Part shown: one piece after another, positions 1 to 60,221 of the stretch
Layout of the letters: each line of letters begins with the position of its first letter
Numbering within the stretch: position 1 is the first letter of the stretch
Assembly: GCA_007695355.1 (NCBI GenBank)
Contig: REDX01000164.1
Coordinates: 1-60,830 of the forward strand
Length of the DNA: 60,830 bases
Source: Planctomycetota bacterium
Lineage (GTDB): Bacteria > Planctomycetota > UBA11346
Reading direction: 5' to 3'
The notes under the pieces: generated by a model
What the model was told of the DNA's origin: nothing
The model's database searches: none
The model's input: only the letters and a program-made list of their open reading frames with translations
Made by a program: the position numbers and the translations under genes

Positions 1-341
1 CCAACACCCCTCGGCGCCAGGTCGGTGGCTTGCGCCACCTCCTGTTTCGGGGGCTGTGCCCCCGGAACCCCCCCCCACCGGAAGGTGTTTGTCGGGACTC
101 AGGTGAAACGGGCAAGCGGTTTCACCTGTGGCCCAGGGGGTTTGGGGGCGCAGCACCGCAGGCTCCATAGAATCGAGCTTGCTCGATGGAGCCGGAGGTG
201 TCGTAGCCCCCAAGAAACAAAGAGCGCTGCGCGATGGTATCCATCCAACACCCCTCGGCGCCAGGTCGGTGGCATGCGCCACCTCCTGTTTCGGGGGCGG
301 TGCCCCCGGACCCCCCCGCACCGGAAGGTGTTTGTCGGGAC
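1..341. repeat. Two ~97-bp direct repeats (1-98 and 245-341) of a GC-rich palindromic REP-like unit flanking a long nested hairpin (142-213)
   Basis: ccaacacccctcggcgccaggtcggtggc.tgcgccacctcctgtttcggggg...ccggaaggtgtttgtcgggac occurs twice with few differences; the spacer contains ttgggggc...atcgagcttgctcgat...gcccccaa. Confidence 0.85.
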
Positions 342-572
342 GGTGCCCCTTAGGGCCTACCCCACCATTTGCAGGAGGGCTTGGGGGGAGGAGACCACGC
401 CTCGTCCCCGCAAGAGCACAGGATGTAACGTCTTCTTTGCAGGCGGCAAGTCGGGGAATTTTCGTACTTGCACCTGGACACCTCCTTGGCAGTATGCCCG
501 CCTTGCCGGTGGAAGGGCCTCAAACGGCTGTCCCCGGCGCTTATGGGCAGCACCCTGCTGCACCGCTTATTC

Positions 573-9473: not shown

Positions 9474-9478
9474 GGGGC

Positions 9479-10411: not shown

Positions 10412-11433
10412 GGCACCGGCACCTGACGTAAAAGCTGGGCAATCACCGCATCGCTATCGAGATCCTCGGCCTCGGCCTCGAAGCTCAAAATCAGACGATG
10501 GCGCAGAATGTCTGGGGCCACCGCTTTGACATCCTGCGGGGTGACAAAGTGCTGGCCGGAAAGCATGGCGTGGGCGCGGGCCGCCTGGGCCAGACTCATC
10601 ACCGCCCGCGGCGATGCCCCAACTTGAATCAGCCGCGGCAATTCACCGGCCTCGGCAGAACGATCGCGGCTGCGCCGCACCAGGGCCAAACAATAGTCTT
10701 TGAGCCGATCATCGATGTGAACCCCATGCAGGGCGCTGCGCAAAAGGCCCAGGTCCTCCAATCTCAGCACCGGCTCGACCCAGGATTCCTGGGGCGAAAG
10801 GGAGCGATCGAGGACCTCGCGCTCTTCGGCAGCGGATGGGTAATCGACGCGCACCTTCATGAGAAAGCGGTCGGTCTGAGCTTCGGGCAGAGGATAGGTG
10901 CCCTCTTGCTCGATGGGGTTCTGGGTTGCCAATACCAGAAAGGGGCGGGGCAGGGGAAAGGTTTCATCACCAATGGTCACCTGGCGCTCCTGCATCGCCT
11001 CCAGCAGGGCCGACTGCACCTTGGCCGGAGCCCGGTTAATCTCATCGGCGAGCACCAGGTTGGCAAAAATCGGCCCGCGCTTGGCGGCAAATATACCGCC
11101 CTCGTAAATGCGGGTGCCGATAATATCGGCCGGCAGCAGATCTGGGGTAAACTGCACCCGAGCAAAACTGGCGTGCCAGCAGGCGGCGAGGGCCTTCACC
11201 ACCGTGGTCTTGGCGAGGCCCGGCAGGCCTTCGAGCAGACAGTGACCATCGCAGAGCAGGCAGATAATCAAGCGGCGCAGTAGCTCACGCTGCCCCACCA
11301 AGACCTTCGCCATCTCCGTTTCCAGGGTGGCAATCATCTGCGCCGCCTGGGCCGGCGAAAGGGAGGGAGAAGTGGCAGGAGAAGTGGCAGGAGAAGTGGC
11401 ACCGGAATCCGTGCCGTCAGCGGTTGTGGTCAT
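10408..11433 (-). CDS. moxR: MoxR family AAA+ ATPase
   Basis: GLPGLAKT, RVQFTPDLLPAD, DEINRAPAKVQSALLEAM, ATQNPIEQEGTYPLPEAQ; ATG 11433 with GGAGG RBS. Confidence 0.95.
   Translation of the reverse strand: MTTTADGTDSGATSPATSPATSPSLSPAQAAQMIATLETEMAKVLVGQRELLRRLIICLLCDGHCLLEGLPGLAKTTVVKALAACWHASFARVQFTPDLLPADIIGTRIYEGGIFAAKRGPIFANLVLADEINRAPAKVQSALLEAMQERQVTIGDETFPLPRPFLVLATQNPIEQEGTYPLPEAQTDRFLMKVRVDYPSAAEEREVLDRSLSPQESWVEPVLRLEDLGLLRSALHGVHIDDRLKDYCLALVRRSRDRSAEAGELPRLIQVGASPRAVMSLAQAARAHAMLSGQHFVTPQDVKAVAPDILRHRLILSFEAEAEDLDSDAVIAQLLRQVPVP
11366..11401. repeat. 3 x 12-bp in-frame tandem repeat (ATSP)3 in the MoxR N-terminus
   Basis: ggagaagtggca x3. Confidence 0.85.
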
Positions 11434-11656
11434 GCGCCCTCCAGATTGAGTACTGCAAATCAAGGCCTCAGCCTGCCCCAGGTCCCTGCCCTGACAACCG
11501 GCCGGCAAGAAGCGTGACGGTTCCGCACCTCACACCCCCAGCCCGGCTGCGTAGCCGGCGAGACCAGGCAGTGGGCAATAAAGGAACAGCCCCCCTTCCA
11601 TCTCCAGACGGAGTAAGGAAGGGAGGCTGTCAGCCCAAGCAACAGAATAGGAGCGA

Positions 11657-14314
11657 CTACCTGGTCAGATTCGCCAATTCTTCGAGGATGCGGTCGGTGG
11701 TTTGAATCACACGAGCCGATACCTGGAAGCCACGCTGGGAAGTAATCAACTTCGTGAATTCAGTGGCGATATCGACATTCGAACCTTCCAAGGCCGAGCC
11801 GGTTATAAAGCCGGCATTTTCACCGGGCACCCGGCGAATGGGATCACCGGAGGCGGTGGAGCGCTGCCAGAGATTGCCCTCGGCGCCGGTGAGGCCCTCA
11901 GGATTGCGGAAGGTGGTGAGCGGCAGCTGCACCAGCTTGCGGCTAATACCGTTGGTATAGAGGGCGATAATATCGCCTTCTGGAGTCACCGAGAGGCTAT
12001 CCAACTTACCATCACCATAACCATCCTGGCTCACCGCCGCAGCGGTACTGGCCGAGCCAAATCCGGTGAGGCCATTAAAGGTCCGACTCTGACCAAAATT
12101 CATGAACATGGTGGCCGGGGTGGTGGGACCGGTGGAATTCCAATTGACCTGGATGCTTTGATTGGACGGCCGGCCAACGTGGGTGAGCTCGGAGAGGGCG
12201 GTGCCGAAAATAGTGGCATTGACCCCCAGAAAGCGACCGCTCTGGTCAAACTCAATGCCGGTCACCAAATCATCGACCAGCTCACCGCGCTCCTGGTTCA
12301 CATTGACCACCATATCCCAGCTATTGATCTTGGCGCCGGAACCGGGCTCGGTACGGGTGCCGACGCGGAAGTAGCGGGCCTCCACCGTATGACGACCGCC
12401 TTGGGCATCGTAGACCTGAATCGAGGAACTGACAAATTCCGGAACCAGACGCGAACGATACCAATCAAAGGTGCCATTGGTTTCATTGAGGTACTGCCAG
12501 GCATGGGCATCGGTGCCGCCGCCTTCTTGGAACATATTGGGCACGCCATCGCCATTGGCATCGTTGGTGAGATTAATCCCGAAGGCATCGGGAATAATCA
12601 GGGTTTCCAATTCGATGGGATTGGCCATCGCCCCCGCGGAAATCACCGAATATTCAATGCGATCACCGGGGCCGACATGGGGGAAGCTGGGCAAGCGGAA
12701 GGCGCGTTCGTCTGCCGAAAGGCCGGTATAATCGCCGGCGGGAATAATAATATTGCCGCGCTCAGTCCCATTAATCCGCATCGAGATGCCGATCGGCTGA
12801 GTAATATTATCCGCGGGAACCGTAAAGCGGGGATCCACCAAACCGACATCGGCGGTATCGGCCACGGTCACCGGGCCATGGGTCACCGGCACATTGACCT
12901 GGGTCAGATTAATCGACTGATTAAGGCCGGGCCGGAGGGTGCGGATATTGAGGTCGTTATAAGGCGTTGCCGTATTATTGGTAATGCGATAGGCGAAATC
13001 GGTGCCCAGGCCCAATTGCGGCACCGAGGGCATGGAAAAATCGCGGCCGCTGGGATAGGTGCCACCGGGGATGGTAAAGCTGCCGCGCACGGTGCCGCCG
13101 GGCTGCTCCAGAATCTCCACCGTCATCTCGGGCACTGGGGTTGCCGAGGCGGGGACCGAAAACCGCGGATTAAAGAGGTCGACGTCGGCCTGGGTATTGA
13201 GGGTAAAGGTGGCGGTGGTGACGGAGCCATTGGCCGGCACATTGACGCCGGCCAAATGGGGATTGCCGGACAGGGCCGGCGAGGGTTCATTGGTGAAGGT
13301 GGTCTTAACTGGAATCGGATTATTGGTGGGTACCGCCGCCATATCCGATTCACCCTCGCCAAAGAATACCGAGAAGCCATCGCCAGAACCGATTGAGGTA
13401 ATCAGCAGATTACCATTTTCAATACGGGCATTGGCAAAGCGATCCGAGCCCTGGCTGAAAACATCGTTGAGCTGGCTCACCAATTCACCGACGGTGCCGC
13501 GATTCGATCCTGGGGTAATCGGCGCCCAAGGATTAATACTGAAGGTGCCTGCGTAAGCTTCGCCATCGGGCCGAGTGCCAAAGACATACATGGTAATAAT
13601 GTCATCTTCGGGGCTGCCGCCGGGCTGGGTTGAGGGCGGAACCGCATCGCCATTAAAAAGATTGAGGTTGAGAAGGCCGGTTTCCTCAGTGGCAGTTTGA
13701 TTGGTGAGGGTATCGCGCAGGGGAAAGATGGAGGTCAGATTGGTACCGCGCAGGGCCGGGGTATTGGAATTGAGGTTGCCCTGGAATTCAATCTCGGAGG
13801 TACGGCGGGGAGGGAAGGCGTCATCGACCGGCACCTCCAAGGGCTCGGCAGTGGAGGCCAGGCTCTGATTGCCCTGGTTATCCACATCCAAATTGTAGCG
13901 ATTACCGATGAGGCGATAACCGGTAGAAAGGTGGACCAAATTATTGGCTTCATCCAGGCCGAAATTACCAACCCGAGTATAGAAAGAGCGGGTGCCATCG
14001 GTGACTTCGAAGAAGCCTGCGCCCTGGATGGCCAAGTCTAGGGTACGGCCGGTGGCCTGCAGGGCACCCTGGCTCATATCCACCTCAATCGAGGCGCCGT
14101 CCACACCCAAGCCCACCTGCCGTGGGTTTTGACCACCAACATTATTACCGGCCGCTGCGCCGGCAAAGGTGGTTTGGATCAGGCTGGTAGCAAAGGTAAC
14201 ACGACTACCTTTAAAGCCCGGGGTATTGACATTGGCCAGGTTGTTGGAGGTCACATCCAGCGCCAGCTGGTTGGTGAGCATTCCGGTTACACCGCTGGAG
14301 AGAGCGCGTTGCAT
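11657..14314 (-). CDS. flgE: Flagellar hook protein FlgE, unusually long (885 aa)
   Basis: SNNLANVNTPGFK, DLAIQGAGFF, YTRVGNF, QDGYGDG, LEGSNVDIATEFTKLITSQRGFQ; ATG 14314 with AAGGA RBS. Confidence 0.92.
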   Translation of the reverse strand: MQRALSSGVTGMLTNQLALDVTSNNLANVNTPGFKGSRVTFATSLIQTTFAGAAAGNNVGGQNPRQVGLGVDGASIEVDMSQGALQATGRTLDLAIQGAGFFEVTDGTRSFYTRVGNFGLDEANNLVHLSTGYRLIGNRYNLDVDNQGNQSLASTAEPLEVPVDDAFPPRRTSEIEFQGNLNSNTPALRGTNLTSIFPLRDTLTNQTATEETGLLNLNLFNGDAVPPSTQPGGSPEDDIITMYVFGTRPDGEAYAGTFSINPWAPITPGSNRGTVGELVSQLNDVFSQGSDRFANARIENGNLLITSIGSGDGFSVFFGEGESDMAAVPTNNPIPVKTTFTNEPSPALSGNPHLAGVNVPANGSVTTATFTLNTQADVDLFNPRFSVPASATPVPEMTVEILEQPGGTVRGSFTIPGGTYPSGRDFSMPSVPQLGLGTDFAYRITNNTATPYNDLNIRTLRPGLNQSINLTQVNVPVTHGPVTVADTADVGLVDPRFTVPADNITQPIGISMRINGTERGNIIIPAGDYTGLSADERAFRLPSFPHVGPGDRIEYSVISAGAMANPIELETLIIPDAFGINLTNDANGDGVPNMFQEGGGTDAHAWQYLNETNGTFDWYRSRLVPEFVSSSIQVYDAQGGRHTVEARYFRVGTRTEPGSGAKINSWDMVVNVNQERGELVDDLVTGIEFDQSGRFLGVNATIFGTALSELTHVGRPSNQSIQVNWNSTGPTTPATMFMNFGQSRTFNGLTGFGSASTAAAVSQDGYGDGKLDSLSVTPEGDIIALYTNGISRKLVQLPLTTFRNPEGLTGAEGNLWQRSTASGDPIRRVPGENAGFITGSALEGSNVDIATEFTKLITSQRGFQVSARVIQTTDRILEELANLTR

Positions 14315-14520
14315 GGCTGTTTCCTTTCCCACCGCAATGGGGAGCGAGCGTTGTGCCCGCGTGCTGGAAAGGATGACGCAACCGCCGTGCCGAAACTCCC
14401 ACCGGGCCTCAGAAGGCCCCAGAGCCCTCCGGGGCAAGCCGGTGCCAAGGGCTAGCCGGTGGCCGAGAAGGCAATTCAACCACCTGTAAGTAATAGCTTT
14501 AAGTGAAAACAGCCGCCGTA

Positions 14521-14684
14521 TCGTGGTCTGAGTCAAGCAGAGTGCAACATATCCGCAGCCCCGGAATGCTGGATTCAAGGCGGGATGACGACGGTGTGGC
14601 AACGCCACCTCGAGGAAATCCCTACGCAGAAGACGGCGTTGTGCGGCTAGGATAGGATGCCGGATTTCTGGCTCAGACCACTAG
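14521..14684. mobile_element. 164-bp MITE-like repeat, copy 1
   Basis: Terminal inverted repeats gtggtctgag/ctcagaccac; near-identical copy at 36528-36691. Confidence 0.8.
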
Positions 14685-19417: not shown

Positions 19418-19644
19418 GTGGTATTCTCCGTGGGCTCGGCACCGGGTAACGGCGCCACCCCCGGGCATGACCGCAGCGAGCAGATGGAGCCATCCGGGGG
19501 CAGGGCCACATGGTGTAAGCGGTGGCCGAGTCAGCAAGGGTCTGTTTCCCCTTTGCCACTCAGGCGACGGTGGGCCGTACACCGCCGCCAGACCCTTCGG
19601 GGACCGGGGATGGTCTTTTCAGCATTTCCCCTAGTCTTAAGGCA

Positions 19645-21570
<1,926 letters not shown>

Positions 21571-37999: not shown

Positions 38000-40801
38000 A
38001 TGAGCATGAGCACCGAGGACATCGCCCGCGCCGAAACGGTGGGCTTTTCGCAGATGGTCGTCCCGGCCAGTATGCTGGGCAAAGGCCATCGCATTGGCCC
38101 CTATGAAATCATCAGACCCCTCGGCCGTGGCGGGGTGGGAGTGGTCTATCATGCCCGCGTGATCGAGAGCTGCGCCCTGCCCGTGGGCCGCGAAGTAGCA
38201 CTGAAAGTCCTGCGTCAAGAACACCTCTCAGAGGCTGATCACCGACGCTTTACCAGGGAAGCTGCCTACCTTCAAGCCCTAAGCCATCATGGCATTACGC
38301 GAATCTATGACATCGGCGACTACCACGGCCGGCCCTATATGGTCATGGAATTAGTTGATGGACAGTGCCTTGACGACCTGCTTAACCGACGCGATAGCGC
38401 CGAACCCAGCGCCCTTGCCCCAGGCCATGCCTCTGATTTGGTTATCCAGGTACTCGAAGCTCTCCACGTCGCCCATATCGCCGGCATTACTCACCGCGAC
38501 CTGAAACCCGGTAATCTGATGATCACCCCGGCTGGCCAGGTGAAGGTTCTTGACTTTGGCATGGCGCAGCGAGTGGGCGGCGAAAGTCGCCTTACCGCTT
38601 CTGGATCCATCCTTGGCACCCCCGCCTATATGAGCCCCGAGCAAGCCCGGGGTCATCGCGAATGGATTGGCGCTCACTCCGACATCTACGCCATGGGTGC
38701 AGTGCTCTACGAATTGGTTACCGGCTACCAGCCCTTCCGCGCAGAAAATTCCGTGGCCGTCCTACGCGCGATTATTGAAGAACCCCTCACGCCCCCTTCA
38801 CAATTGGTACCCAATCTACCCGTCCACCTTGAGACCATCATTCTCACCAGCATGGCCAAGGATCCCAGAGACCGCTACCCAAGCGCTGAATCCATGGCCG
38901 AGGACCTGCGCCGCTTTCGCCGTGGCAATAAACCCCGAGCCCAGCGCATACCCTTCTATCGACCCTGGCTGCGGGCCGCCTATTACCACCGCAGTGTCAT
39001 TGCCACTTCTGGCCTAGTTCTTTTTGCCGTTTCCGCAGTGGCGACGGCTGCCATCGCTCAACCCTGGGCACAAGAAAAGCCCCCAGAGCTAACGCCCACG
39101 CCCATACTCATCGCCAATGATGCCCCGGACCCCTGGCTAACCAACTGGCAGCATCCAGAATCCCTTGGCGCCTCCATTACTGCCGCCGCTCGCTGGGATC
39201 AAGAACGGGCCCCTGGCCTTACCATTTTTACGCCGGTTCAACCCGATAATCGAGATCGTAGTATCACCGCAGAGTCCGATGTGCGCATACGCTTCACCGC
39301 CCAGCACCAACGAGGTGGCACACCCGCCCGGATCCTCTTTAGCGATCGCAGTCTCGGCCAAGGCTATAGCCTGGTACTTGGCGAAAACCTGCGCCTTAAG
39401 CGCCCGCGACTTGGTGAAAGTAGTCAGCAACTGGCCATTATCTCTAGCAACCCCTGGCCTGACGATGAACCGGAAACGATTTTCACCATAGAACGGCAAG
39501 GAAATGTCATTGAAGTTTATGCTCAATCGCCTCGATTGAACAACGGCCCCGCAAGCCTCGTCCTGCGCCACGTTGACCTGATCCCCCTCGAAGGATCCGA
39601 TCACAGCGGCATTCACTTCCTTATCCAACCGGATAGCACCGCCATTCGTCAAATCACCATTGAGCGACGACGGCGCTCGGAAATGGTTTCCCGCCTTGAA
39701 CTCGGCGACGCCCTGCGCCAGGACGGCCAATTTGTCCGCGCCGAGCGGTTTTACCGGGATTTCCTCCGCGATTTTCCTGATTCACCACGGGCCCGAGATG
39801 CTCGCTATCGCCGCGGCCTCTGCCTGAGCGCCCTAGGACGTCATAATGAAGCCCTCGAAGTCTTTCTTCAGGTGGCGGCCGAATCCGAAAATGACCCCCT
39901 CTACTCAGTTTCCGCAAGCTTTCAGGCCTGGCAATCCACCCTCAGACTAGGCCGACTCAGTGAGGCCGAACGCTACTTCGAATCAATTCGTTCGCGCTAC
40001 GATCTCGCTACGTTGCTTGCCTATGCCAGTGAAGACTTGATTAGCGCCCTACCCCAGCGCTATATCGACACTGCCCGCCAAGAAGGCCCGATTGACCCCT
40101 GGCGCGCCATTTCCCTCTTCGATACCGCCGCCGATATCGGCGAATACCTTCAATTAGTCCCGGTTCAAGCCGCTGCCCGCATTGGTGCCGCAGATATCCT
40201 AGCCAGCCTCGAACGCTGGGAGGAGGCAGAAGAGCGACTGCTGCAAATCTTGGCCAACGAACAGACAGGACGCCAAATACGGCTAGGGACCCTTGTTCGC
40301 CTGGCCCAAATGCAACGTCTACGCGAGGAGTATCAGGCTGCCGAAGCCACCTACCGCATCGCCCTGGAACTCGCCGATAATCCCCATGGAGATTTCGCAC
40401 AATGGACGCGATTATGGCTTTCTGATCTCCTTACCACTATGAATCGCCACACCGAAACCTATTCCCTATGGAATGATTTATCATCCTACGATTCGCTGGT
40501 TGGCGCCATCGCCCGCAACCTGCTTGGTCCATTAATCGACATGCCATTAGATGGCCCCCCCCATCGCATCAACGACATCGCTTACTTTAACGCCATTGCC
40601 GGAATCCTCGCCGGCAATCGGGATCGTTTTGAAGAATGGTTTCAAACCGCCCTTTCATTAAGTGAACCCTTCGAATGGCCCCAACTCCTGCTTGGCGACG
40701 CTTGGCAAAGCGAAGAACATCTCATGCAAACCTGGCATCGCTATCCTTCGCGCATCAATGTACGGGATCCTGAGATGGACGCTGGCTACCCTGTCGACTA
40801 G
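38000..40801 (+). CDS. Hanks-type Ser/Thr kinase with TM, lectin-like beta region and TPR repeats
   Basis: LGRGGVGVVY, VALK, HRDLKPGN, DFG, GTPAYMSPEQ; TPR-like FPDSPRARDARYRRG. Confidence 0.9.
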   Translation: MSMSTEDIARAETVGFSQMVVPASMLGKGHRIGPYEIIRPLGRGGVGVVYHARVIESCALPVGREVALKVLRQEHLSEADHRRFTREAAYLQALSHHGITRIYDIGDYHGRPYMVMELVDGQCLDDLLNRRDSAEPSALAPGHASDLVIQVLEALHVAHIAGITHRDLKPGNLMITPAGQVKVLDFGMAQRVGGESRLTASGSILGTPAYMSPEQARGHREWIGAHSDIYAMGAVLYELVTGYQPFRAENSVAVLRAIIEEPLTPPSQLVPNLPVHLETIILTSMAKDPRDRYPSAESMAEDLRRFRRGNKPRAQRIPFYRPWLRAAYYHRSVIATSGLVLFAVSAVATAAIAQPWAQEKPPELTPTPILIANDAPDPWLTNWQHPESLGASITAAARWDQERAPGLTIFTPVQPDNRDRSITAESDVRIRFTAQHQRGGTPARILFSDRSLGQGYSLVLGENLRLKRPRLGESSQQLAIISSNPWPDDEPETIFTIERQGNVIEVYAQSPRLNNGPASLVLRHVDLIPLEGSDHSGIHFLIQPDSTAIRQITIERRRRSEMVSRLELGDALRQDGQFVRAERFYRDFLRDFPDSPRARDARYRRGLCLSALGRHNEALEVFLQVAAESENDPLYSVSASFQAWQSTLRLGRLSEAERYFESIRSRYDLATLLAYASEDLISALPQRYIDTARQEGPIDPWRAISLFDTAADIGEYLQLVPVQAAARIGAADILASLERWEEAEERLLQILANEQTGRQIRLGTLVRLAQMQRLREEYQAAEATYRIALELADNPHGDFAQWTRLWLSDLLTTMNRHTETYSLWNDLSSYDSLVGAIARNLLGPLIDMPLDGPPHRINDIAYFNAIAGILAGNRDRFEEWFQTALSLSEPFEWPQLLLGDAWQSEEHLMQTWHRYPSRINVRDPEMDAGYPVD

Positions 40802-40894: not shown

Positions 40895-42280
40895 TCAGGA
40901 ATAGGCCTGGACAGAAATGGCGTCCACTGGTCGGACAATGTGGGCCGACCACCGCAATCCCTCGTATTCACGGTACCCTTGAGTACGAGAACTGCCTATG
41001 AGGTAGCGAATCTGGTCATGCAGCAAAAGTCCGGAACAACTAGCCCCGCGGTCTAAGCAGTGATGTTCATCGGCAATGCGCGGCTTCATGCCAACGGCGA
41101 AACGCTGTGGGTCAGTGGTTTCAATAATGATTCCATCGCGATTCGTGTAAAAGGCCGCTGCTCCTGGTATCGGTGACCCTAAGCGGTCCATCGGCAGGCA
41201 GGTGCGTAAAATAGTCTGCGCCTCGGTATCCCAATCAAAGAGAATGCCAAGGACGCCAATCGCCTCGCCCTGGCGCACGCCGTTGCGGCGTATGCCCCCA
41301 ACATAAATGAGGGAACGATCCTTGGTGCGTTCAAGGGGCGACTGCACCACGTCCTGAACCGCATATTCGCTGGAATCAGCAGTGCGCATGCCCGATTGAA
41401 ACCACTCGTGATCACTCACATTAAGCTTGCGCAATTCATTGCGCATTTCCAATCGCGAGCAGGCAACGATATCGCCATTACGATCCGCCAGCACCAGATT
41501 ACGATACATGGTGTAACTCGCATTAATCACCTTAAGACGCTTACTGGCGGCCTCATAAACATCCTCCCCCGGACTCTCCAAGGCTGACCAGAAGTATTGA
41601 TCGGTACTCCACCAGCGAATATCCGCAGCCCTTTCGAAAAGATTGCGATCGATAACGTCGATGGCCTGTTTTGAACTATTCTCCAATGCCCGAAGGTTCA
41701 TCTCGAGTTCACCAACGGCCATTTCAGCCAGGAGTTTTTCCATCATGCTCGTGGCAAAATCACCGGTCTTGGTGATTTGGTCAAAAATTGGCCCCAATGC
41801 CACCCCACGCTTGCCCAGTTTACTGGCAAAGACGATTCCGTTCAAGGAAATCAATTGGATAGATTCTTTATCGTCTTGAATTTTTATGTAAGTCTCTTTA
41901 TTCACATCCGGAATAATCTGCGAGTGCAGCAAATCCTCAGGCTGCAGCAAGCTCTTACTGGCATCCACTCGCTGACTAAAGATTGCTGATTTAGGCAAGA
42001 CAAGATGGCTATTCCAGCCCAGACCTGGATATTCGAGATAGCCATCCGTTTTCGCGGTGAAAATAGCAGAATCTTCGCCCTCAAAAATCAAGTAGTCATT
42101 AATTCGCTCACCCTTTGAGAGGCTCCGATGCCGACGTGGGAGATGGGCATAGGTTGATACCGGAACCACCGCGGGATCGCTGGAGCCAATAATGGTTCCC
42201 GTTCCATCGGTGAAAAAACTGTACCATCCATCCAATACTCGGCCCCGGGAATCAGTCGGCATGTAATCATCGAGGATCAT
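40895..42280 (-). CDS. C-terminal part of a frameshifted soluble Cache-domain chemoreceptor-like protein
   Basis: Contains an MCP-tip-like segment IQLISLNGIVFASKLGKRG, DRNLFERAADIRWW and a Cache-like module; continues the upstream ORF after a one-base shift. Confidence 0.7.
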   Translation of the reverse strand: MILDDYMPTDSRGRVLDGWYSFFTDGTGTIIGSSDPAVVPVSTYAHLPRRHRSLSKGERINDYLIFEGEDSAIFTAKTDGYLEYPGLGWNSHLVLPKSAIFSQRVDASKSLLQPEDLLHSQIIPDVNKETYIKIQDDKESIQLISLNGIVFASKLGKRGVALGPIFDQITKTGDFATSMMEKLLAEMAVGELEMNLRALENSSKQAIDVIDRNLFERAADIRWWSTDQYFWSALESPGEDVYEAASKRLKVINASYTMYRNLVLADRNGDIVACSRLEMRNELRKLNVSDHEWFQSGMRTADSSEYAVQDVVQSPLERTKDRSLIYVGGIRRNGVRQGEAIGVLGILFDWDTEAQTILRTCLPMDRLGSPIPGAAAFYTNRDGIIIETTDPQRFAVGMKPRIADEHHCLDRGASCSGLLLHDQIRYLIGSSRTQGYREYEGLRWSAHIVRPVDAISVQAYS

Positions 42281-42299
42281 CTGTGCCTCACCCTGGAAA

Positions 42300-43322
42300 T
42301 CAAAAAAACACACCCATGGCGCCCAAAGTCCGGCCGGCACTGTCGCCATTCTCCCGCACCGCAGTTGAATAGATCAGAGAATTGTCCTGATCTGGCTCGA
42401 CGTGACTTCCGCATAAATCCCGCACCGCATATTGTGTGGCATCTTTGGTCTGCATGGCATCAAGAAACCATGACTCGTCCGCCACCGAGGTTCCCAATAA
42501 GCCCTCTCGCGTTTGCTCATTGCTGCTCGCAACAATACATCCTTGCCTGTCTGTAATTACAAGATCACGATAAAGCGTGTAGCTATTGTTTATGTCTTCA
42601 AGGCGATCGCAGGCAAACCTCACTTTACCGCCAATATCTTCGCAGGCAGCGCGAAGCTTGGCGATCACATCCGTGGTGTCTTCAGTCAGCAGCAAACAAT
42701 TGTCTGCGTCGATGAGACAGTCAAGCGCTCCACGAAACCGGCTTAGATTTTCAGGGTTAGCGAGCTTACCAGCAGACACACCTGATTGCGATCGCAGGTA
42801 TTCGCAGGCCTTAACGACTGGGTCTGAAGCCCCTGGTTTAACTCCAATGGCTTCCGCAGACTGTAAAAGATTCGTTACCGCATCGAAAAGCGACAAGCAA
42901 TCAGCAAAGGCCGTTTCCAAACTCCACCAACGCACATCGCAAGTGCGTTCAAGTAAGTTACGGTCCAACAAATTGATTTTAATATAAGCCGTTGTCGAGA
43001 AGATACTCTTGCAGAAATCCTCTTTTGCCTGGTAAAACTGATCAAATAAGCGCTTCGTAACTCCAAGCAGTTGAAAAGAAAAGTTTTCGACCTTTTTCAT
43101 AAGGTCCGTGATTTGTTCTTGCTCGGTGACATTTTCGGATATTTCAACGGCGGTACATTTTCCCTGGTTACAAATCGGAAAAATCCCACTTAACTCTCCT
43201 ATAATTCGCTCATAAAATTCTCGGTGCTCATACGTGATCACGGGATTGAAAATCGAGAATTTTGCCGCCTCAGCGGCCATTACGGATGGAGAATCAGTGG
43301 GCTGTGTATCCATTGGCTTCAT
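42300..43322 (-). CDS. N-terminal part of a frameshifted soluble Cache-domain chemoreceptor-like protein
   Basis: DRNLLERTCDVRWW, YTLYRDLVITD, WF..AM; ends at TTT-TTT-TGA in the middle of the conserved G(V/I)xFD motif. Confidence 0.7.
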   Translation of the reverse strand: MKPMDTQPTDSPSVMAAEAAKFSIFNPVITYEHREFYERIIGELSGIFPICNQGKCTAVEISENVTEQEQITDLMKKVENFSFQLLGVTKRLFDQFYQAKEDFCKSIFSTTAYIKINLLDRNLLERTCDVRWWSLETAFADCLSLFDAVTNLLQSAEAIGVKPGASDPVVKACEYLRSQSGVSAGKLANPENLSRFRGALDCLIDADNCLLLTEDTTDVIAKLRAACEDIGGKVRFACDRLEDINNSYTLYRDLVITDRQGCIVASSNEQTREGLLGTSVADESWFLDAMQTKDATQYAVRDLCGSHVEPDQDNSLIYSTAVRENGDSAGRTLGAMGVFF

Positions 43323-43873
43323 GATTGTTCACCTCCTCCTGCTGGCAGGAGATCGTTTAAGATATTGAGTACTGATATTTCAGACAAAAATCCGTCTTCC
43401 AGTTCATAAACCGCAGTTATGAAGTCATGGCTGAGATTAGCCGGTGGCGGGTGGCGAACCGTCGAGCGCACTCGGTGCACCCGGTCCATACTGTCGACCA
43501 GCAAGGCTACCGGTTCATCAAAAGCCTGAATATTGAGCTCGGCCGCCTCCTGACATAGATGAAAGCGATCTTCCATTAACATCAAACGGCAACCATGGTC
43601 TTCGCGGCCAATTTTCATAATTCGACTGATATCCAAGTAATTTAGCGTGCCTGTCGATGGCGAGTGATCCGATTCCTCGCCACGATCGGCCAAACACAGC
43701 CGCAAGTCAATCACCGCAGCGCTGACCCCGCGCAGACTGATAATACCTGCCAAGCGACGATCGCTGCCCGGGACCGGGGTTATCGGCAAAGGACGCACAA
43801 TTTCTTCCACCGAAAATACCGGCACTCCATAGCGATAACCATTCACCATGAACCCACATATGTCCGCATTCAT
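43319..43873 (-). CDS. cheW: Chemotaxis coupling protein CheW
   Basis: F.V.GYRYGVPV..VEEIV, ITPVPG, GIISLRG, ALLVD. Confidence 0.85.
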   Translation of the reverse strand: MNADICGFMVNGYRYGVPVFSVEEIVRPLPITPVPGSDRRLAGIISLRGVSAAVIDLRLCLADRGEESDHSPSTGTLNYLDISRIMKIGREDHGCRLMLMEDRFHLCQEAAELNIQAFDEPVALLVDSMDRVHRVRSTVRHPPPANLSHDFITAVYELEDGFLSEISVLNILNDLLPAGGGEQS

Positions 43874-44070
43874 GCTTTACCCCTGCGGCTCTTCATTACC
43901 TGCTCCGCCAGACGATGGACGATGCCAATAAGATCATGTTTGTCTATCTTAACCGCATATTCATCAAATCCCGCCTTCAAACCTCGACGTCGAGATTCAT
44001 CGTCTGCCAGAGACGTTAATGCAAGAACGGGCAAATGACGAAGACCTGGATCGCCTTTAATTCGCTGAAC
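43870..44070 (-). pseudogene. cheA: Remainder of the CheA receiver domain beyond an in-frame TGA
   Basis: Same frame reads VQRIKGDPGLRHLPVLALTSLADDESRRRGLKAGFDEYAVKIDK...GKA* and ends in an ATGA overlap with cheW. Confidence 0.8.
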
Positions 44071-46920
44071 TCATTCAAAGCCGTTCATCCGCGGCATCTC
44101 AATGTCTGATATAATAAAATCAAAATATTCACGCTGGCGCTGCAAGAGATCCCATGCCTGCTGACCATCCTCCACAACCTCCAATTCGATGCCTGGGATT
44201 TGAAGGTAAGAACTGACGAGCTTGGCGAAGAATTTATTATCCTCAGCCAATAGTACTCGGGTTACCCCGGACAGCTTCTGCTGTGCCGCAAAGGCTTCCG
44301 GCATGGCGCGTTCAGCCAAGGCATACAAGTCTACCAAGGTTACGACGTGGCCTTCATAATATGCCGTACCCACCACCCCATTCTTAGAGTCATTATGTGC
44401 ATCAAAGGATTCGGAGAAATCCGCTATGCGCAAATTAGAGCCCACCAGAATGCCAAGCGGCTTGGGCACCCGAGCCGGTAAGATCAGATGGTAGGCTTCA
44501 ACTTCACGATGGGGCGTTACCTCAAGATGCTCTTCTAGTCGTAACAAAGGAATGGTGGCATCCTTGAGTTGGTAGTATTCTCGCTTACCTATACGATGAA
44601 TGTCCTTGGCTGCGATTTGCTCTATCAAAGTGATCATCATTAAGGGGATGGCGAAAAATTCCCCCGGCGCATTCTCAAAGGTAATCATCTGCTGCGCTGT
44701 CTTCAAAGCTGATTTTGCCTGAAAGCGATGCTCTGGTAAATCATGCAGCCGCAGGCCTCGCTTCTCGACAATCCCCGCTACATCCAGCATCATAACCACC
44801 GATCCATCCCCCAGCACCGTGTGCCCGCAAAATCCCGGAACCGACTGTAAAAGTTTGGGGGTAGAACGCACCACCACCTCTTCGACGCCAACCACAGCAT
44901 CGACTAAAATGCCAAAGAGAGCACGGCGGAAATCTAATACGATCAGCGTCTGCCTATTTCTCCGGCGGTCTCCACCAGTGCGCTGATGGGCAAAGCGTTG
45001 GGCATTTTCATGGCTTTCTGTTTGTCGGCGATCAGCGATGCGAGATCGACGATCAAGCTTCACTTCACCAGTAAGCGGGTGAAGGAAGGTGCGTTCAAGA
45101 CTGAGGCAGTCTTCGAGATGGACGATGGCTAATACTTTATCGCGCAATTGATAGACATCTTCACCGTCTAACTGCTTAATGTAATCCCGCTGATCCTGGG
45201 GATCAATTTGGATAATCTCGTTCACCGCGGTCTGCGGCAAAACAAAGCGCTGACCTGCCACCTCGACAACAATGGCGGAAATCAGCGACGACGAGACAAC
45301 GGTCTGGGTGAGCGGCAGGCGAAATGCAAAGATCGTCCCGGCCCCAAGATTGGTGTGCACCTCTACGGCACCGCCAATGCGCTCGACATTGGTCTTCACC
45401 ACATCCATGCCGACACCACGACCTGAAACATCGGTGCTTTGATCTTTAGTGCTAAAACCAGGAGAAAAAATCAAATGCAATATCTCGCGTGGACTCATCG
45501 CGCGGGCCTTTTCTGCGCTAATCAATCCCTTGTCAATCGCCTTGGACCTTACCCGTTCATGATCGATGCCGCCGCCGTCATCCTCAATTTCGACAATAAC
45601 CTCACCGCTTTGATGGTAGGCCCGCAGCATAATCCGGCCAACTCGCGATTTTCCGCGCTCTTGACGCACAGCGGGATCCTCGATGGCATGATCAACAGCA
45701 TTGCGCACCATGTGATTCAAAGGATCGGCGAAGGCCTCGATGATCGTCCGGTCTAATTCTATGTCTGCTCCAATTGCCTGAAATTCTACTTCCTTGCCTA
45801 ATTTATTCGCCAGATCACGAACCGGCCGGCGAAAGCGCTCAAACAAGCTGCCAATGTGTTGCATCCGCTGCTGAACCACACTCTTGTGCATTTCCGTAAT
45901 GCATCGAGACAGCACCGCAAACGATATATCTTCTTGGAAATTGTAGCGCGAAAGCATTTGATTGCGCGCCATAACCATATTGCCAGTGGCCTCTAATAAC
46001 TCATCGAGTAAACGGGTACTCACCCGCATCGACGAGCCTTCGCTTGCCGCCGCATGGCCACCGGAGCTTTTCTTCTCCTTGGCCTGGGAAGAGGGTGGGG
46101 CAGGAGGCGGGGAAGAGATCGATTTGACTGGCGGTGAGGGGGCGACTTGCACTACTGCCTGATCCGCCGCCGGCTGCGGTCGATCAGGCACCGCAGCTGA
46201 AGCCTTCGCAAGGGGCAGGGCCGGCACCAACTGCCCCGCATGAAGCTCATAAAGGGAGGCAATGATATCTGCGGGCATTTCACTCTGCAGCTCTAACTCG
46301 ACCATCTGCCCAGCCTCGCTTGGCCGGATGTGCAGAGAGCACACCTCACCAATTTTGCTGAAACCCTCAAAAATGCCCTGGGCACAGTCGGGCAACCCAC
46401 GCAGCTGCGCTAATGGCGCCTCGATGCAATACCTTGTCACCGCCGACACAGACGGTGATGCTGGCACGCGATCCAGGGCCGATGCCTCTGACGCATCAAC
46501 CTCCACCGCCGCCGTTTCTACATCAGGCCTCGCTATTCCATCGATCTGCGGTGCCGCCGCAGCTGGGATTTGCCCATTCAAACGGCGACAAAGGTCAGCG
46601 ACATCGGCGTCCTCGCCCTCCAGCAAGCAGCCTAAACCGTCTACGGCGGCCAGCATTTGGTCGGCGATGGCAGGCGTCAGGGATAGGTTCCCCTTGCGTA
46701 CCTCGTCCATCAAAGCCTCGGCATGATGGGCCAAAGTCACTAAATCATTGAGATCGAGAAAGCCAGCACCGCCCTTAATTGAATGCACGGCGCGAAAGAT
46801 TTCATCCACGGTTTCAGCATCAACACCACCGCTGGACTCCAGACGCAGCAGATGCCGCTCCACCTGCGCCAGGGCGGCAAGGGATTCAGCCTTAAATTCC
46901 TCGGCCAAGGCTTCATCCAC
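44071..46920 (-). CDS. cheA: Hybrid chemotaxis histidine kinase CheA (HPt-dimer-HATPase-2xCheW-REC), REC interrupted by TGA
   Basis: FRAVHSIKG, HMVRNAVDHAIE, DDGGGID, PGFST, SGRGVGMDVVK, VLLAED, SDIEMP. Confidence 0.93.
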   Translation of the reverse strand: MDEALAEEFKAESLAALAQVERHLLRLESSGGVDAETVDEIFRAVHSIKGGAGFLDLNDLVTLAHHAEALMDEVRKGNLSLTPAIADQMLAAVDGLGCLLEGEDADVADLCRRLNGQIPAAAAPQIDGIARPDVETAAVEVDASEASALDRVPASPSVSAVTRYCIEAPLAQLRGLPDCAQGIFEGFSKIGEVCSLHIRPSEAGQMVELELQSEMPADIIASLYELHAGQLVPALPLAKASAAVPDRPQPAADQAVVQVAPSPPVKSISSPPPAPPSSQAKEKKSSGGHAAASEGSSMRVSTRLLDELLEATGNMVMARNQMLSRYNFQEDISFAVLSRCITEMHKSVVQQRMQHIGSLFERFRRPVRDLANKLGKEVEFQAIGADIELDRTIIEAFADPLNHMVRNAVDHAIEDPAVRQERGKSRVGRIMLRAYHQSGEVIVEIEDDGGGIDHERVRSKAIDKGLISAEKARAMSPREILHLIFSPGFSTKDQSTDVSGRGVGMDVVKTNVERIGGAVEVHTNLGAGTIFAFRLPLTQTVVSSSLISAIVVEVAGQRFVLPQTAVNEIIQIDPQDQRDYIKQLDGEDVYQLRDKVLAIVHLEDCLSLERTFLHPLTGEVKLDRRSRIADRRQTESHENAQRFAHQRTGGDRRRNRQTLIVLDFRRALFGILVDAVVGVEEVVVRSTPKLLQSVPGFCGHTVLGDGSVVMMLDVAGIVEKRGLRLHDLPEHRFQAKSALKTAQQMITFENAPGEFFAIPLMMITLIEQIAAKDIHRIGKREYYQLKDATIPLLRLEEHLEVTPHREVEAYHLILPARVPKPLGILVGSNLRIADFSESFDAHNDSKNGVVGTAYYEGHVVTLVDLYALAERAMPEAFAAQQKLSGVTRVLLAEDNKFFAKLVSSYLQIPGIELEVVEDGQQAWDLLQRQREYFDFIISDIEMPRMNGFE

Positions 46921-47217: not shown

Positions 47218-48384
47218 TCAAGCCAAGAATAACCCACGCACCTTTGAAGCCGGAACGGCATGCTCCATATCATCTCGGCGCAGCATCGTTACTGGTGTGA
47301 TTTTCCCCTCGTGCACCAAACGCCTAAGATCCCTGGCTGACACAATCATTTGCTCACGTGGCTTGACCGACACTGTCCACCGCTGCAATGGCGCCCCAGA
47401 CTGTGGGTTACCCTGCGATAAAACCGCCGCCAGCGCCCGCGAATCGGACCTATTTTCATCGTTCCGACGAGCCACTACTGGCCTGCCGATGAGGGTTGAA
47501 GGTGGGCGGAAAAGTCCCCTGCAGCGCACTGCTGCTATATATTGGCCACCTCCCTCTGGACGTAGCAAGGTTTTATGCTCAAGGCGTCCGCGGCGGGCTA
47601 GATTGCAGACATGCTCCCAACTTACCGCTGCACATTCAGACCCTTCAAGGACTACGTGCCAACGATGGGCCTCCGGATGATCCTCTGGTTGCACTACCAA
47701 AGAGCGTCCAAGGCTACTGAGATCCTGAGTGCTGAAGGCTCCGCTATCTTGGCGGGCAAACCCACTGCTTAGGGGTTTTGCCACTGGTGGCGTTGCCGTG
47801 CGATGATAACAGGGCAATTCGGCGGTAGCCATAGGATCTCCACCATTAAGCAGGGCATCAAGCCCTTGCCGCGGCAGCAGAGAATCTTCTGGCGCACCGC
47901 GAAGTCTTGCCGCCACTGGGCAATCCACCAACACTTGAGCCATGGCTTGCAAGGTTTCACGATTCAAACGGTTGTCTCCACAACTCACTGATGGTTGCCA
48001 AGTTCCGCTAAAAGGATTGAGCCAGCATCTATTGATGCGATCAAAGTAGCGCAATCGGGGTTCCCGCATAATGGTTTCGCGAATCCAATAATACCACCGA
48101 AGGCAATGCAGAATCCGCAGGCTTTTACGCGGTGCACTTACCCAGCGAGGATGGTTCTGCAGCCATCGAATCATCGCTTCCTGACCATCAAAGCCGATAT
48201 CTACTCGCTGGCAGGTTAATGGCTCGATCCAGTGTAAGCGGTCAAAGGTGAACACCTGAAACAGGACATCAGAACGCAAGAGCTCGATGATATCAGCCCG
48301 ACCAATACGCTGGGAGCCGGGGGGAACAGTGAGGCCATTATCTGCACGGCGTTGAGTGACCTGAGTAATAATCTGAGGTGGCAT
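47218..48384 (-). CDS. Hypothetical protein with two C-terminal GYF_2 (DUF4339)-like domains
   Basis: Two W...VS...L...G.(L/I)...T.LR......A....GLF units. Confidence 0.7.
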   Translation of the reverse strand: MPPQIITQVTQRRADNGLTVPPGSQRIGRADIIELLRSDVLFQVFTFDRLHWIEPLTCQRVDIGFDGQEAMIRWLQNHPRWVSAPRKSLRILHCLRWYYWIRETIMREPRLRYFDRINRCWLNPFSGTWQPSVSCGDNRLNRETLQAMAQVLVDCPVAARLRGAPEDSLLPRQGLDALLNGGDPMATAELPCYHRTATPPVAKPLSSGFARQDSGAFSTQDLSSLGRSLVVQPEDHPEAHRWHVVLEGSECAAVSWEHVCNLARRGRLEHKTLLRPEGGGQYIAAVRCRGLFRPPSTLIGRPVVARRNDENRSDSRALAAVLSQGNPQSGAPLQRWTVSVKPREQMIVSARDLRRLVHEGKITPVTMLRRDDMEHAVPASKVRGLFLA

Positions 48385-58232: not shown

Positions 58233-58373
58233 GCCCAGCCCCTTTCGTCCATGGCAGCGATTGCCGCGACAGCCTCTCCCCCACCAGCCCAAGAAGAACA
58301 GGCTGTGCCACAGCCGCCCCCCCAGCCCAGGACCTGCCTTGCAGCAGGGCCGCAAGACCCTTCCAATGGCAGC

Positions 58374-60221
58374 ATGCCCAGTGTGCGAATTATAGATGGC
58401 CCCGGCGCCGGCCTAGCGGTGGAGCTCCAAGACGCCTTAAGCATTGGCCGCGATCCCAGTTGCGGCCTGCAATTGGCTGATGTTAAGGCCAGCCGCCGCC
58501 ACGCCCTCATCTCCCCCCAGGCCGAGGGTTGGCAATTGCGCGATAGCGGCAGCGCCAACGGCATTTGGCAGGGCAAGGAGCGCATTAGCCAGCTTGATTT
58601 GAGCGATGGCAGCGAATTCCGCATTGGCGGCACCGTCCTGCGCTTTGAAGATTCTCACCAGATTCCCCCGGGCAGCGCCGACGATCAGGCCTGGGGCGAA
58701 ACCATTACCGGCCTGGAAAGTAGCGGGCCCGGTGAGTCGGCGCTCTTCACCACCGAATCCAGCCTAAGCGCCGGGGCTAACGATTACCTCCTGCTGCTGC
58801 ATCAGGTGGTGCACCGCAGCCAGGGCACGGCCAGCCGGGAAGAACTTTTTGATATCCTCGACAATGTCGCCGCCGATGCCCTCGACGGCGATCGCTGCGC
58901 CGTCTTTCTCCCCAAGGATAGCGGCTGGCTGCTGTGGCCGCCGCACGAGCGACGGCTGCGCGCCCGCTTTGGCGCCACCCCCTTCGCCGGCACCCTGCTG
59001 AGCACCGCCCGCCAACGCCTGCAGCCCCTGCTGTGTACCGCCCGTGGCGACCTCGACCCCAGCATGAGCATGGCCCAGGCCGGCCTGCGCTCGGCCATGG
59101 TGGCCCCCCTGCGCATTGGCAGCGAGGTACATGCCCTGCTCTATGTCGATCGCCTGGAAAGCAGCACCCCCTTTAGCCGCCGCGATCTCGAATTTTTAGA
59201 GGCGGTGGCCAACCAGCTAGCGGTGCGCTTGCATAATATGAGCGAACTCTCCCGCCTCTCGGCCGAGGTTGAACGCCTCTCGGTAAGCCGGCCGCGGGAA
59301 CAGGTAACCCTCATCGCCAACGCAAGCAACCGCGAAACCTGGCGGCGCTTTATCGAGAGCGCAGCCCAGGTGCAGCAGCCGGTGCTGATAGTTGGCGAGC
59401 CCGGCACCGGCAAGCGCAGCCTGGCCAAGGCCATTCACCAGGCCTCGGAGCGCGCCAGCGCCCCCCTGCAAATGCTGGCCTGCGCCAGCTTGGATGAATC
59501 CGCCTGCGAATTGAGTCTCTTTGGCCGGGCTGCTGGCAGCGCCGACGAAGCCCGGCCCGGCCTGCTTGAGCTGGCCCACCAGGGCAGCCTGCTACTGGAC
59601 GACATTGGCAGCCTTAGCCCCCTCCTGCAGCGCCGCGTGCTGCAGGTCCTGGAGGAGGGCCAGTGCCAGCGCCTCGGCGAAACGGCCCCGCGCCAGGTCG
59701 AAGTCCGCCTCTTCGCCACCCTGCAACCCGGCGCTGAGGACGGACTGATTCCTGAACTCGCCCAGGCGCTCAGCACCATGCGCCTGGATCTCCCCCCCCT
59801 GCGCGAGCGCGGTGAGGATCTGGACCTGCTGATTGAGCACGCCATCGCCGAAAGCGCTGAACGCCTCGATCAACCGGTGCGCAGCCTCAGCCCCGAAGCT
59901 CGCAGCCTGCTCTTAGGTTACGCCTGGCCGGGGAATATCCGCCAATTGCGCAGCGTTATTGAGCGCGCCATGGTCATCGCCCACGGCCCCCTACTCCAGG
60001 CCGAAGATTTGCCCGAGCACCTGCGCGAGGACGCCGGCCACAGCCCCGCCCCCAATGGCAATACCCAGTTGCCCCTGCTTCCCCTCGCGGAAATGGAGCG
60101 CAGCCATATTCTGCGCATGCTCGAACACTGCGGCGGCAATAAAAAGGCCGCCGCCGAACTTCTCGGCATCGACCGCTCTACCCTCTACGCCAAGCTTCGC
60201 CAATATGGTGTCCATGGCTAA
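58374..60221 (+). CDS. FHA-GAF-AAA+-Fis-HTH transcriptional regulator (sigma54-activator family, degenerate)
   Basis: FHA IGR..SRRHA..SANG; GAF; GEPGTGK; PPLRERGED; WPGNIRQL; GNKKAAAELLGIDRSTLYAKL. Confidence 0.88.
   Translation: MPSVRIIDGPGAGLAVELQDALSIGRDPSCGLQLADVKASRRHALISPQAEGWQLRDSGSANGIWQGKERISQLDLSDGSEFRIGGTVLRFEDSHQIPPGSADDQAWGETITGLESSGPGESALFTTESSLSAGANDYLLLLHQVVHRSQGTASREELFDILDNVAADALDGDRCAVFLPKDSGWLLWPPHERRLRARFGATPFAGTLLSTARQRLQPLLCTARGDLDPSMSMAQAGLRSAMVAPLRIGSEVHALLYVDRLESSTPFSRRDLEFLEAVANQLAVRLHNMSELSRLSAEVERLSVSRPREQVTLIANASNRETWRRFIESAAQVQQPVLIVGEPGTGKRSLAKAIHQASERASAPLQMLACASLDESACELSLFGRAAGSADEARPGLLELAHQGSLLLDDIGSLSPLLQRRVLQVLEEGQCQRLGETAPRQVEVRLFATLQPGAEDGLIPELAQALSTMRLDLPPLRERGEDLDLLIEHAIAESAERLDQPVRSLSPEARSLLLGYAWPGNIRQLRSVIERAMVIAHGPLLQAEDLPEHLREDAGHSPAPNGNTQLPLLPLAEMERSHILRMLEHCGGNKKAAAELLGIDRSTLYAKLRQYGVHG

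Follow-up and report, generated by a model that had tools for sequence, protein, structure and literature searches.

A probably decaying, frameshifted gene of a planctomycete cheA/cheW cassette and the family of soluble, tandem hairpin-dCache chemoreceptor candidates to which it belongs

The contig REDX01000164.1 of a Planctomycetota bacterium (assembly GCA_007695355.1) was analysed over its positions 1 to 60,830, a stretch to which we refer as the window. On the minus strand, between positions 40895 and 43322, two open reading frames (ORFs) follow genes for a CheW protein and for a hybrid CheA with a C-terminal receiver (CheA-REC). We consider it quite probable that this locus is the frameshifted, and most likely inactivated, third gene of a cheA-REC/cheW/receptor cassette, and that the intact protein is a soluble, non-canonical chemoreceptor of ~800 amino acids derived from a tandem-duplicated mini-version of a methyl-accepting chemotaxis protein (MCP), in which a short hairpin tip is followed by a cytoplasmic dCache domain. 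The interest of the finding lies at the level of the family; the window itself carries a broken copy in a cassette that is apparently decaying.

The upstream ORF (42300-43322, minus strand, 340 amino acids) encodes residues 1-340, comprising an N-terminal hairpin and the first part of a first dCache module, and it is closed by a TGA that the frameshift creates. The downstream ORF (40895-42349, minus strand, 484 amino acids) overlaps it by 50 nt on the same strand. The first 16 codons listed for this second ORF are out-of-frame overlap; its real coding part extends from 42301 (residue 341, GAT) to 40898 (residue 808), with the stop codon at 40895-40897. At the break the coding strand reads GGT GTG TTT TTT TGA TTT CCA, with a run of seven Ts at 42302-42308 (seven As on the plus strand), where relatives have six (GTG TTT TTT GAY). 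Three of them (L052, L053 and L057) use the same codons, GTG TTT TTT GAC, with the six-T run at the equivalent place. If one T of the run is skipped, so that TGAT yields D, the frame is restored (...GAMGVFF-DFQGEAQMILDDY...) and an 808-amino-acid protein (P0001) is obtained. Related genomes contain the gene uninterrupted, as single ORFs of at least 789 amino acids; the clearest case is an orthologue (L003) of 789 amino acids and 62% identity, whose gene order, CheA-REC, CheW, receptor, is that of the window. The whole receptor is contained in one ORF at 75 of the 78 genome loci with a receptor ORF, two of the others being cut by contig ends and one being split. The split copy (L069, 5647-8307) comes from a planctomycete metagenome-assembled genome (MAG) and consists of ORFs of 661 and 204 amino acids. 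Because the relatives have six Ts and intact ORFs predominate to this extent, the window copy is the exception. The two minus-strand ORFs belong to a single gene, interrupted by one surplus T in what is a six-T run in relatives. The preliminary description of this DNA, which had joined them into a single protein of 808 amino acids, was correct on this point, although it overlooked the likely pseudogene state.

A second lesion lies in the neighbouring cheA, where an in-frame TGA at 44071-44073 (minus strand) cuts the receiver (MNGFE*VQRIK); relatives read MNGFELVRNIK, with Leu at the place of the stop. Beyond this TGA the remaining receiver codons stay in frame as far as 43870. Recoding of TGA was considered and rejected: TGA is the commonest stop codon in the window and ends 25 of its 48 long ORFs. 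The genus has one other genome (G001), and its cheA orthologue bears a different lesion, a 1-nt deletion in the ATPase domain (L208, G001:C155, about position 2960-2980) that divides it into ORFs of 499 and at least 394 amino acids. Three different lesions are thus found in one cassette across two related MAGs, which argues for relaxed selection, and on the evidence of these sequences real decay of the cassette is the likely reading. The genome keeps an ordinary chemotaxis system, with five canonical MCPs, other CheA and CheW genes and a flagellar hook gene.

The main alternative to decay is that cheA and the receptor gene are intact in the living organism and the cassette is functional, the extra T and the TGA having entered the MAG as errors of consensus or assembly, or as fixed minority alleles. 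The MAG is fragmented (308 contigs, 86% complete, 5.8% contamination), the receptor lesion alters a homopolymer by a single base, and conservation is still good in the residues that follow either lesion. An exact 37-nt window stretch beside the T run had no match in metagenome contigs. Sequencing or assembly errors would, however, have to account for two lesions that are independent of each other and differ in kind, in a set of only three neighbouring genes, and a substitution to TGA is untypical of homopolymer errors. Moreover, of the 36 other window ORFs scanned against Pfam, none with a family match looks split, and the congeneric genome has its own, different frameshift in the same cheA. 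We regard an intact cassette as unlikely, while granting it a real chance.

The read-through protein contains no hydrophobic segment (maximum Kyte-Doolittle mean over 19 residues, 1.08), in line with the earlier proposal of a soluble receptor lacking transmembrane helices; the usual setting of dCache domains, extracytoplasmic and between two membrane helices, is not the one found in P0001. Its two halves are similar to each other. Residues 237-450 align with residues 592-805 without gaps over 214 columns, 39% of them identical (E 8e-49); a second duplicated stretch pairs residues 116-143 with 554-581 (E 2e-07). An AlphaFold2 (AF2) model of the 808-amino-acid receptor was built from an alignment of 27 sequences (predicted local distance difference test score, pLDDT, 85; predicted template modelling score 0.81), and in it both repeats form complete double-PDC (dCache) folds. 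Module 1 comprises residues 116-455 (41957-42977, minus strand), spans the frameshift and includes a variable helical insert at residues 141-236, where the majority-residue frequency is 0.30. Module 2 comprises residues 554-805 (40907-41662, minus strand). In VIA-align searches module 2 matched 3by9_B with Z 18.7 and a root-mean-square deviation (rmsd) of 2.7 over 227 aligned residues (model 537-801), and module 1 matched 9hvj_A with Z 13.8 (model 100-449). With Foldseek, DctB and Tlp3 were matched with E about 1e-8 and a target-normalised template modelling (TM) score of about 0.7. The Pfam model dCache_1 (PF02743) recognised two stretches of the read-through protein with 50.1 bits, against a cut-off of 45, whereas the broken ORFs taken separately reached only 26.2 and 25.8 bits. 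The clear internal duplication and the two Cache-like modules of the preliminary description are therefore both borne out.

In front of each sensor the model has a helical hairpin. The N-terminal hairpin (42924-43259, minus strand, residues 22-133) is made of helices 31-45 and 47-61, a turn at 62-64 and a long helix, 65-133, that enters dCache 1; the middle hairpin (41609-41908, minus strand, residues 472-571) is made of helix 472-501, a turn region at 502-509 and helix 510-571, which enters dCache 2. In both cases the second helix of the hairpin runs unbroken into the first helix of its dCache domain. These junction helices carry the motif DRNLxER..D.RWW and, together with the hairpins, are the best-conserved parts of the receptor: the majority-residue frequency is 0.89-0.93 in the junction helices and 0.79-0.85 in the hairpins, as compared with 0.67-0.69 in the sensors. 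Conservation of the N-terminal hairpin alone is strong, with frequencies of 0.76-0.93. The repeat unit is thus a hairpin plus a dCache domain, duplicated in tandem. The inverted architecture described earlier, in which sensors sit on both arms of one mini-hairpin, was right as to a soluble receptor with Cache sensors and wrong as to the layout, which includes a second, N-terminal hairpin.

The middle hairpin contains the degenerate MCP-tip motif IQLISLNGIVFASKLGKRGVALGPIFDQI (41774-41860, minus strand, residues 488-516), and its relationship to MCPs becomes apparent through single-module relatives. Proteins with one module were found in genomes of the same family, with ~380-390 amino acids (L007:1486-2655, 389 amino acids, and L008:614-1750), and in the representative library, with ~350 amino acids (P0231, P0243 and P0263). 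In the Pfam scan of such relatives, which took in L007, L009, P0231, P0243 and P0263 (L008 was compared with P0001 only), all five passed the MCPsignal model with E values from 1.8e-16 to 1.6e-22, and all except the L009 ORF had a dCache_1 match C-terminal to MCPsignal. In BLASTP the single-module relatives align to residues 481-797 of P0001 without a break through the tip (E 2e-33 and 2e-30), setting IQLISLNGIVFASKLGKRGVALGPIF of P0001 against their canonical tip. When residues 456-808 were compared by hhalign with 10 single-module sequences, a probability of 100 and an E value of 5e-60 were obtained over 309 columns; as a positive control, the tips of those 10 sequences matched MCPsignal with E 2e-31. 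The chain reversal of the model at 502-509 coincides with the aligned MCP U-turn (G-E-x-G, by Tsr numbering).

Direct comparison with MCPs gave a different picture, and the following results weigh against an MCP tip. Pfam MCPsignal (PF00015) had no match at E<=1 in any of five family members (P0001, P0002, P0031, P0097 and the L003 orthologue), nor in the two window ORFs taken separately. A family profile run against PDB sequences yielded eight matches with E values of 0.17-7.1, no MCP among them. The hairpin alone, compared by hhalign, matched MCPsignal with P 0.018 over 28 columns and the single-module tips with P 0.0034 over 39 columns; at P 0.003-0.03 overall, profile-profile similarity of the hairpin to MCPsignal is not significant. 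The MCPsignal alignment used here consisted of 34 planctomycete MCP signalling domains. Against these, the register of IQLISLNGIVFASKLGKRGVALGPIFDQI chosen by eye in the preliminary description was indeed the best local match, with 17-28 columns, P 0.007-0.03 and a probability under 6%. The NCBIfam scan returned nothing MCP-like for the receptor, only a 21-bit PhyK match. In the ESM Atlas the hairpin part of the window ORF gave no usable feature match, and structure matches to MCPsignal clusters (TM score about 0.7 over about 80 residues) all fell below the bar and are a lead only.

Because the middle hairpin is colinear with relatives that pass MCPsignal, we accept it as a diverged MCP tip, on the ground of transitive homology and not of direct similarity. 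The claim that this segment resembles an MCP tip hence stands in the form of homology through intermediates; the direct resemblance is not significant. The helical hairpin foreseen for the segment is present in the AF2 model, as are the very short helices without a methylation region: the arms measure about 30 residues, short of such a region.

The N-terminal 115 residues of P0001 take the place of the first hairpin and are conserved as highly as the middle one. A protein of 714 amino acids in the representative library (P0148) contains MCPsignal and dCache twice each, as two canonical units one after the other, and appears to be an intermediate between the single-module mini-MCPs and the window family. 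Taking into account the position of the N-terminal hairpin and the organisation of P0148, this hairpin may have originated as a second tip. It speaks against such an origin that hhalign found no significant similarity of this hairpin to MCPsignal, to the middle hairpin or to the single-module tips (P 0.04-0.3). A pairing of ELNGIFPICNQGK with SLNGIVFASKLGK made by eye was dropped as evidence, since the model, with its N-terminal turn at 62-64, does not bear it out either.

In the structure search, single-chain up-down-up-down four-helix bundles aligned to the model over the range 31..534. Examples are 9u78_B (Z 13.3, rmsd 2.6, 118/118 residues aligned) and 1yo7_B (Z 11.8, rmsd 2.5, 115/120 aligned), and a dozen further matches end between model residues 531 and 546. 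The simplest reading of these predicted structures is that helices 31-61, 65-~95, 472-501 and 510-~535 form one intramolecular bundle with both turns at the same end, in which case the receptor would be a single-chain mimic of the MCP dimer tip. Two circumstances argue for caution: the evidence for the bundle consists of the start and end points of alignments to a predicted model, and Z values under about 13 are common for helical bundles. The 50 matches listed for the 808-residue model included no solved MCP cytoplasmic bundle, which says little for a query of that size.

The receptor gene of the window is preceded on the same strand by cheW (43319-43873, 184 amino acids), whose stop overlaps the receptor start by 4 nt, and by the hybrid cheA (43870-46920), which overlaps the start of cheW by 4 nt and encodes Hpt, dimerisation, HATPase, two CheW-like and receiver domains. 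None of 29 aligned cognate CheW proteins shares the insertion of about 23-29 residues that the window CheW carries around EESDHSPSTGTLNYLDISRIMKIG. About 300 nt before cheA, and in the same orientation, lies a gene (47218-48384, minus strand) for a 388-amino-acid protein with a C-terminal GYF_2 domain; this neighbourhood is not conserved at other loci.

Association of the receptor with CheA and CheW was followed in species-representative genomes, where 121 stretches encode a relative; 80 loci were kept for the analysis of synteny. A same-strand CheA-REC adjoins the receptor at 68 of the 80, upstream (CheA-CheW-receptor) at 59 and downstream (receptor-CheA-CheW) at 9, and a stand-alone CheW ORF of 130-230 amino acids is present at 68. 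Seven of the 12 loci without adjoining CheA have under 1.1 kb upstream, and five of these seven still show CheW. The remaining five loci (three from Methanolobus, L109 and L122) have flanks and nevertheless lack CheA and CheW nearby. When neighbours were clustered, only three genes emerged as conserved, the receptor (78 loci), CheA (66) and CheW (61), the next cluster reaching 18; neither CheY nor CheB nor CheR is part of the cassette at these loci. CheR and CheB are adjacent at a single locus (L122) and missing from this position at the other 79. This locus (96-2039, from a Pseudomonadales MAG) has CheR and CheB upstream, and not CheA and CheW, which is odd for a receptor without a visible methylation region.

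A homologue search scored 8000 candidates, of which 269 reached E<=1e-3. The 120 matches listed are proteins of 748-838 amino acids and 50-73% identity, and their database names are only 'cache domain-containing', 'PDC sensor domain-containing' or 'hypothetical'. A hidden Markov model scan of 1.84 billion representatives returned 1066 matches at E<=1e-3 and 337 at E<=1e-30. The family occurs in about ten phyla, its carriers including Planctomycetota, Desulfobacterota, Fibrobacterota, Verrucomicrobiota/Opitutia, Lentisphaerota, Oligoflexales, Gammaproteobacteria, Gemmatimonadota and the archaeon Methanolobus. The Methanolobus copies (L073, L078 and L090) are 52-54% identical to the planctomycete protein and have no CheA or CheW beside them, an arrangement that points to transfer of the receptor gene by itself between domains; in the two Methanolobus genomes that were searched (those of L078 and L090), CheW and CheA are encoded elsewhere.

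Receptor and CheW are also found fused. In a sister subfamily, two modules are followed by a C-terminal CheW (P0147, P0153, P0181 and P0240), and fusions of a single module to CheW exist as well (P0239 and P0252). By the classical fusion argument this speaks for a functional link between receptor and CheW. The CheW-fused subfamily has at least 579 relatives in metagenome contigs, and its tip motif is degraded further. At 80 of its metagenome loci (L124-L203) no CheA is adjacent; a canonical MCP gene of ~432 amino acids lies nearby in 25 of them, and the other neighbours are housekeeping genes.

For prediction of a complex, the window CheW was combined with both hairpins, given as alignments of residues 20-140 and 455-585. 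The interface score (ipSAE) had a median of 0.45 (runs 0.59, 0.45 and 0.06), as compared with 0.00 in all three controls, in one of which the middle hairpin had been swapped out. The runs agreed in at least 71% of contacts, with a partner pLDDT of at least 57. In calibration, 116 of 157 solved complexes and 2 of 215 mismatched pairs attained the ipSAE mark; with scores of 0.60 or under, only 18 of the 157 and both mismatches did so. Solved MCP-CheW complexes exist, so that a pass may reflect likeness to them. The prediction was graded as weak support, one of the three runs reaching only 0.06; this grading, the loci without CheA and CheW and the absence of adjacent CheA from the CheW-fused loci all count against the overall reading of the locus. 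The docking of CheA and CheW to the mini-hairpin, as put forward in the preliminary description, is consistent with the synteny, the CheW fusions and the weak complex prediction, and we infer that the tip would bind CheW and CheA.

These observations are compatible with the following mechanism. The two hairpins would pack into one short four-helix bundle, with the single chain imitating an MCP dimer tip; binding of a ligand in one or both cytoplasmic dCache domains would shift the long helices and thereby alter the tip of the bundle. CheW, together with the CheW-like domains of CheA, would link the tip to the kinase, and CheA would phosphorylate its own C-terminal receiver. Methylation-based adaptation would presumably be lacking, because there is no room for it in the short arms and because CheR and CheB are not part of the cassette. 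Whether the proteins make up a horizontally spread, self-contained cassette, with a receptor class that MCP models do not see (a single-chain pseudo-dimer with two ultra-short kinase-control hairpins and two dCache sensors for intracellular ligands, devoid of methylation adaptation), is in our estimate an evenly balanced matter.

Alternatively, the protein could be a cytoplasmic double-Cache sensor that serves CheA-REC and CheW in some other way, as a scaffold, as a target or through dCache contacts, its tip motif being a vestige that docks neither CheW nor CheA. Key tip residues are indeed replaced, MCPsignal is not detected, the motif is degraded still more in the CheW-fused subfamily, and the complex prediction reported no interface. 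However, the hairpins belong to the best-conserved parts of the receptor across phyla, which implies a constrained interaction surface; the single-module relatives keep a canonical tip; and replacement of the middle hairpin brought the complex score to 0.00, a weak argument. A vestigial tip accordingly appears improbable. That the break is regulated, by programmed +1 frameshifting at UUU UGA through re-pairing of the P-site tRNA-Phe (UUU UUU UGA would permit perfect +1 re-pairing with a stop in the A site, presumably as in prfB) or by slipped-strand phase variation of the T run, is very hard to believe, since relatives with the same codons have six Ts in frame, one ORF spans the protein at 75 of 78 loci, the shift is not conserved, and cheA carries an unrelated lesion of its own.

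Returning to the reading of the protein as a receptor with two short tips, its parts (MCP tip, dCache, CheW and CheA) are known; what is new is their arrangement, the extreme shortening, the interpretation as a single-chain pseudo-dimer and the compact mobile cassette. No publication was found that describes the receptor family, a receptor with tandem hairpin-dCache units or a cassette of CheA-REC, CheW and a Cache protein, in a search whose coverage did not extend to subscription journals. With the soluble MCPs of PF00015 the window family shares a hairpin turn at the position of the MCP U-turn, a residual L-x-x-L-N ... A-x-(K/R)-x-G-x-x-G pattern, a tip region more conserved than the sensors, and genes that lie together with those for CheW and CheA. 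In contrast to them, it is missed by the Pfam model, has arms of about 30 residues with no methylation region, and carries its sensor C-terminal to the hairpin, with two hairpins and two sensors per chain. The shortest known MCP class (24H) has at least 12 heptads per arm.

Closest to the window family are the single-module mini-MCPs (~330-390 amino acids), which have the same order of elements, the DRNLxER..D.RWW junction helix and the dCache domain, with 27-33% identity over the whole module. They differ in having one module and a canonical tip, and are presumably homodimeric. In the few loci inspected none of them was in a CheA-REC/CheW cassette, and their automatic annotation is 'methyl-accepting chemotaxis protein'. 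Helicobacter pylori TlpD is likewise soluble, with a sensor C-terminal to the signalling hairpin; it differs from the window family in its MCP bundle, which is of full length, in its CZB zinc domain and in lacking both a duplication and a dCache. The double PDC fold is shared with periplasmic dCache sensors such as DctB (3by9), Tlp3 (4xmr) and PscC (6mni), with Z up to 18.7, whereas the dCache domains of the window family are cytoplasmic, are not flanked by membrane helices and signal through an N-terminal helix. In a preprint, intracellular dCache is termed a rare repurposing (bioRxiv 10.1101/2023.04.06.535858); the present proteins add a large family to the intracellular dCache sensors.

If the proposed reading is true, the definition of a chemoreceptor would extend to proteins with about four heptads per arm, no adaptation region, an inverted order of domains and both 'protomers' in one chain. 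Such receptors would be a natural system for finding out how much of the MCP bundle is needed for control of CheA, and asymmetric roles of the two halves of an MCP dimer could be tested within one polypeptide. They would also account for CheA-REC/CheW pairs without an annotated receptor in Planctomycetota, Desulfobacterota, Fibrobacterota, Verrucomicrobiota and other phyla; genome censuses would count these systems as receptor-less CheA/CheW pairs.

Several other genes of the window were recognised. Positions 2853-11508 (minus strand) encode a MoxR AAA ATPase, a DUF58 protein, several VWA proteins and a BatD-like protein, which together make up a Bat/MoxR-type operon, and 11657-14608 (minus strand) encodes an unusually long flagellar hook protein of the FlgE type (983 amino acids). 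Two Ser/Thr protein kinases are encoded at 19522-21570 and 38000-40801; the second has a long TPR region, and its gene is convergent on the receptor gene. An FHA-GAF sigma-54 activator is encoded at 58251-60221.

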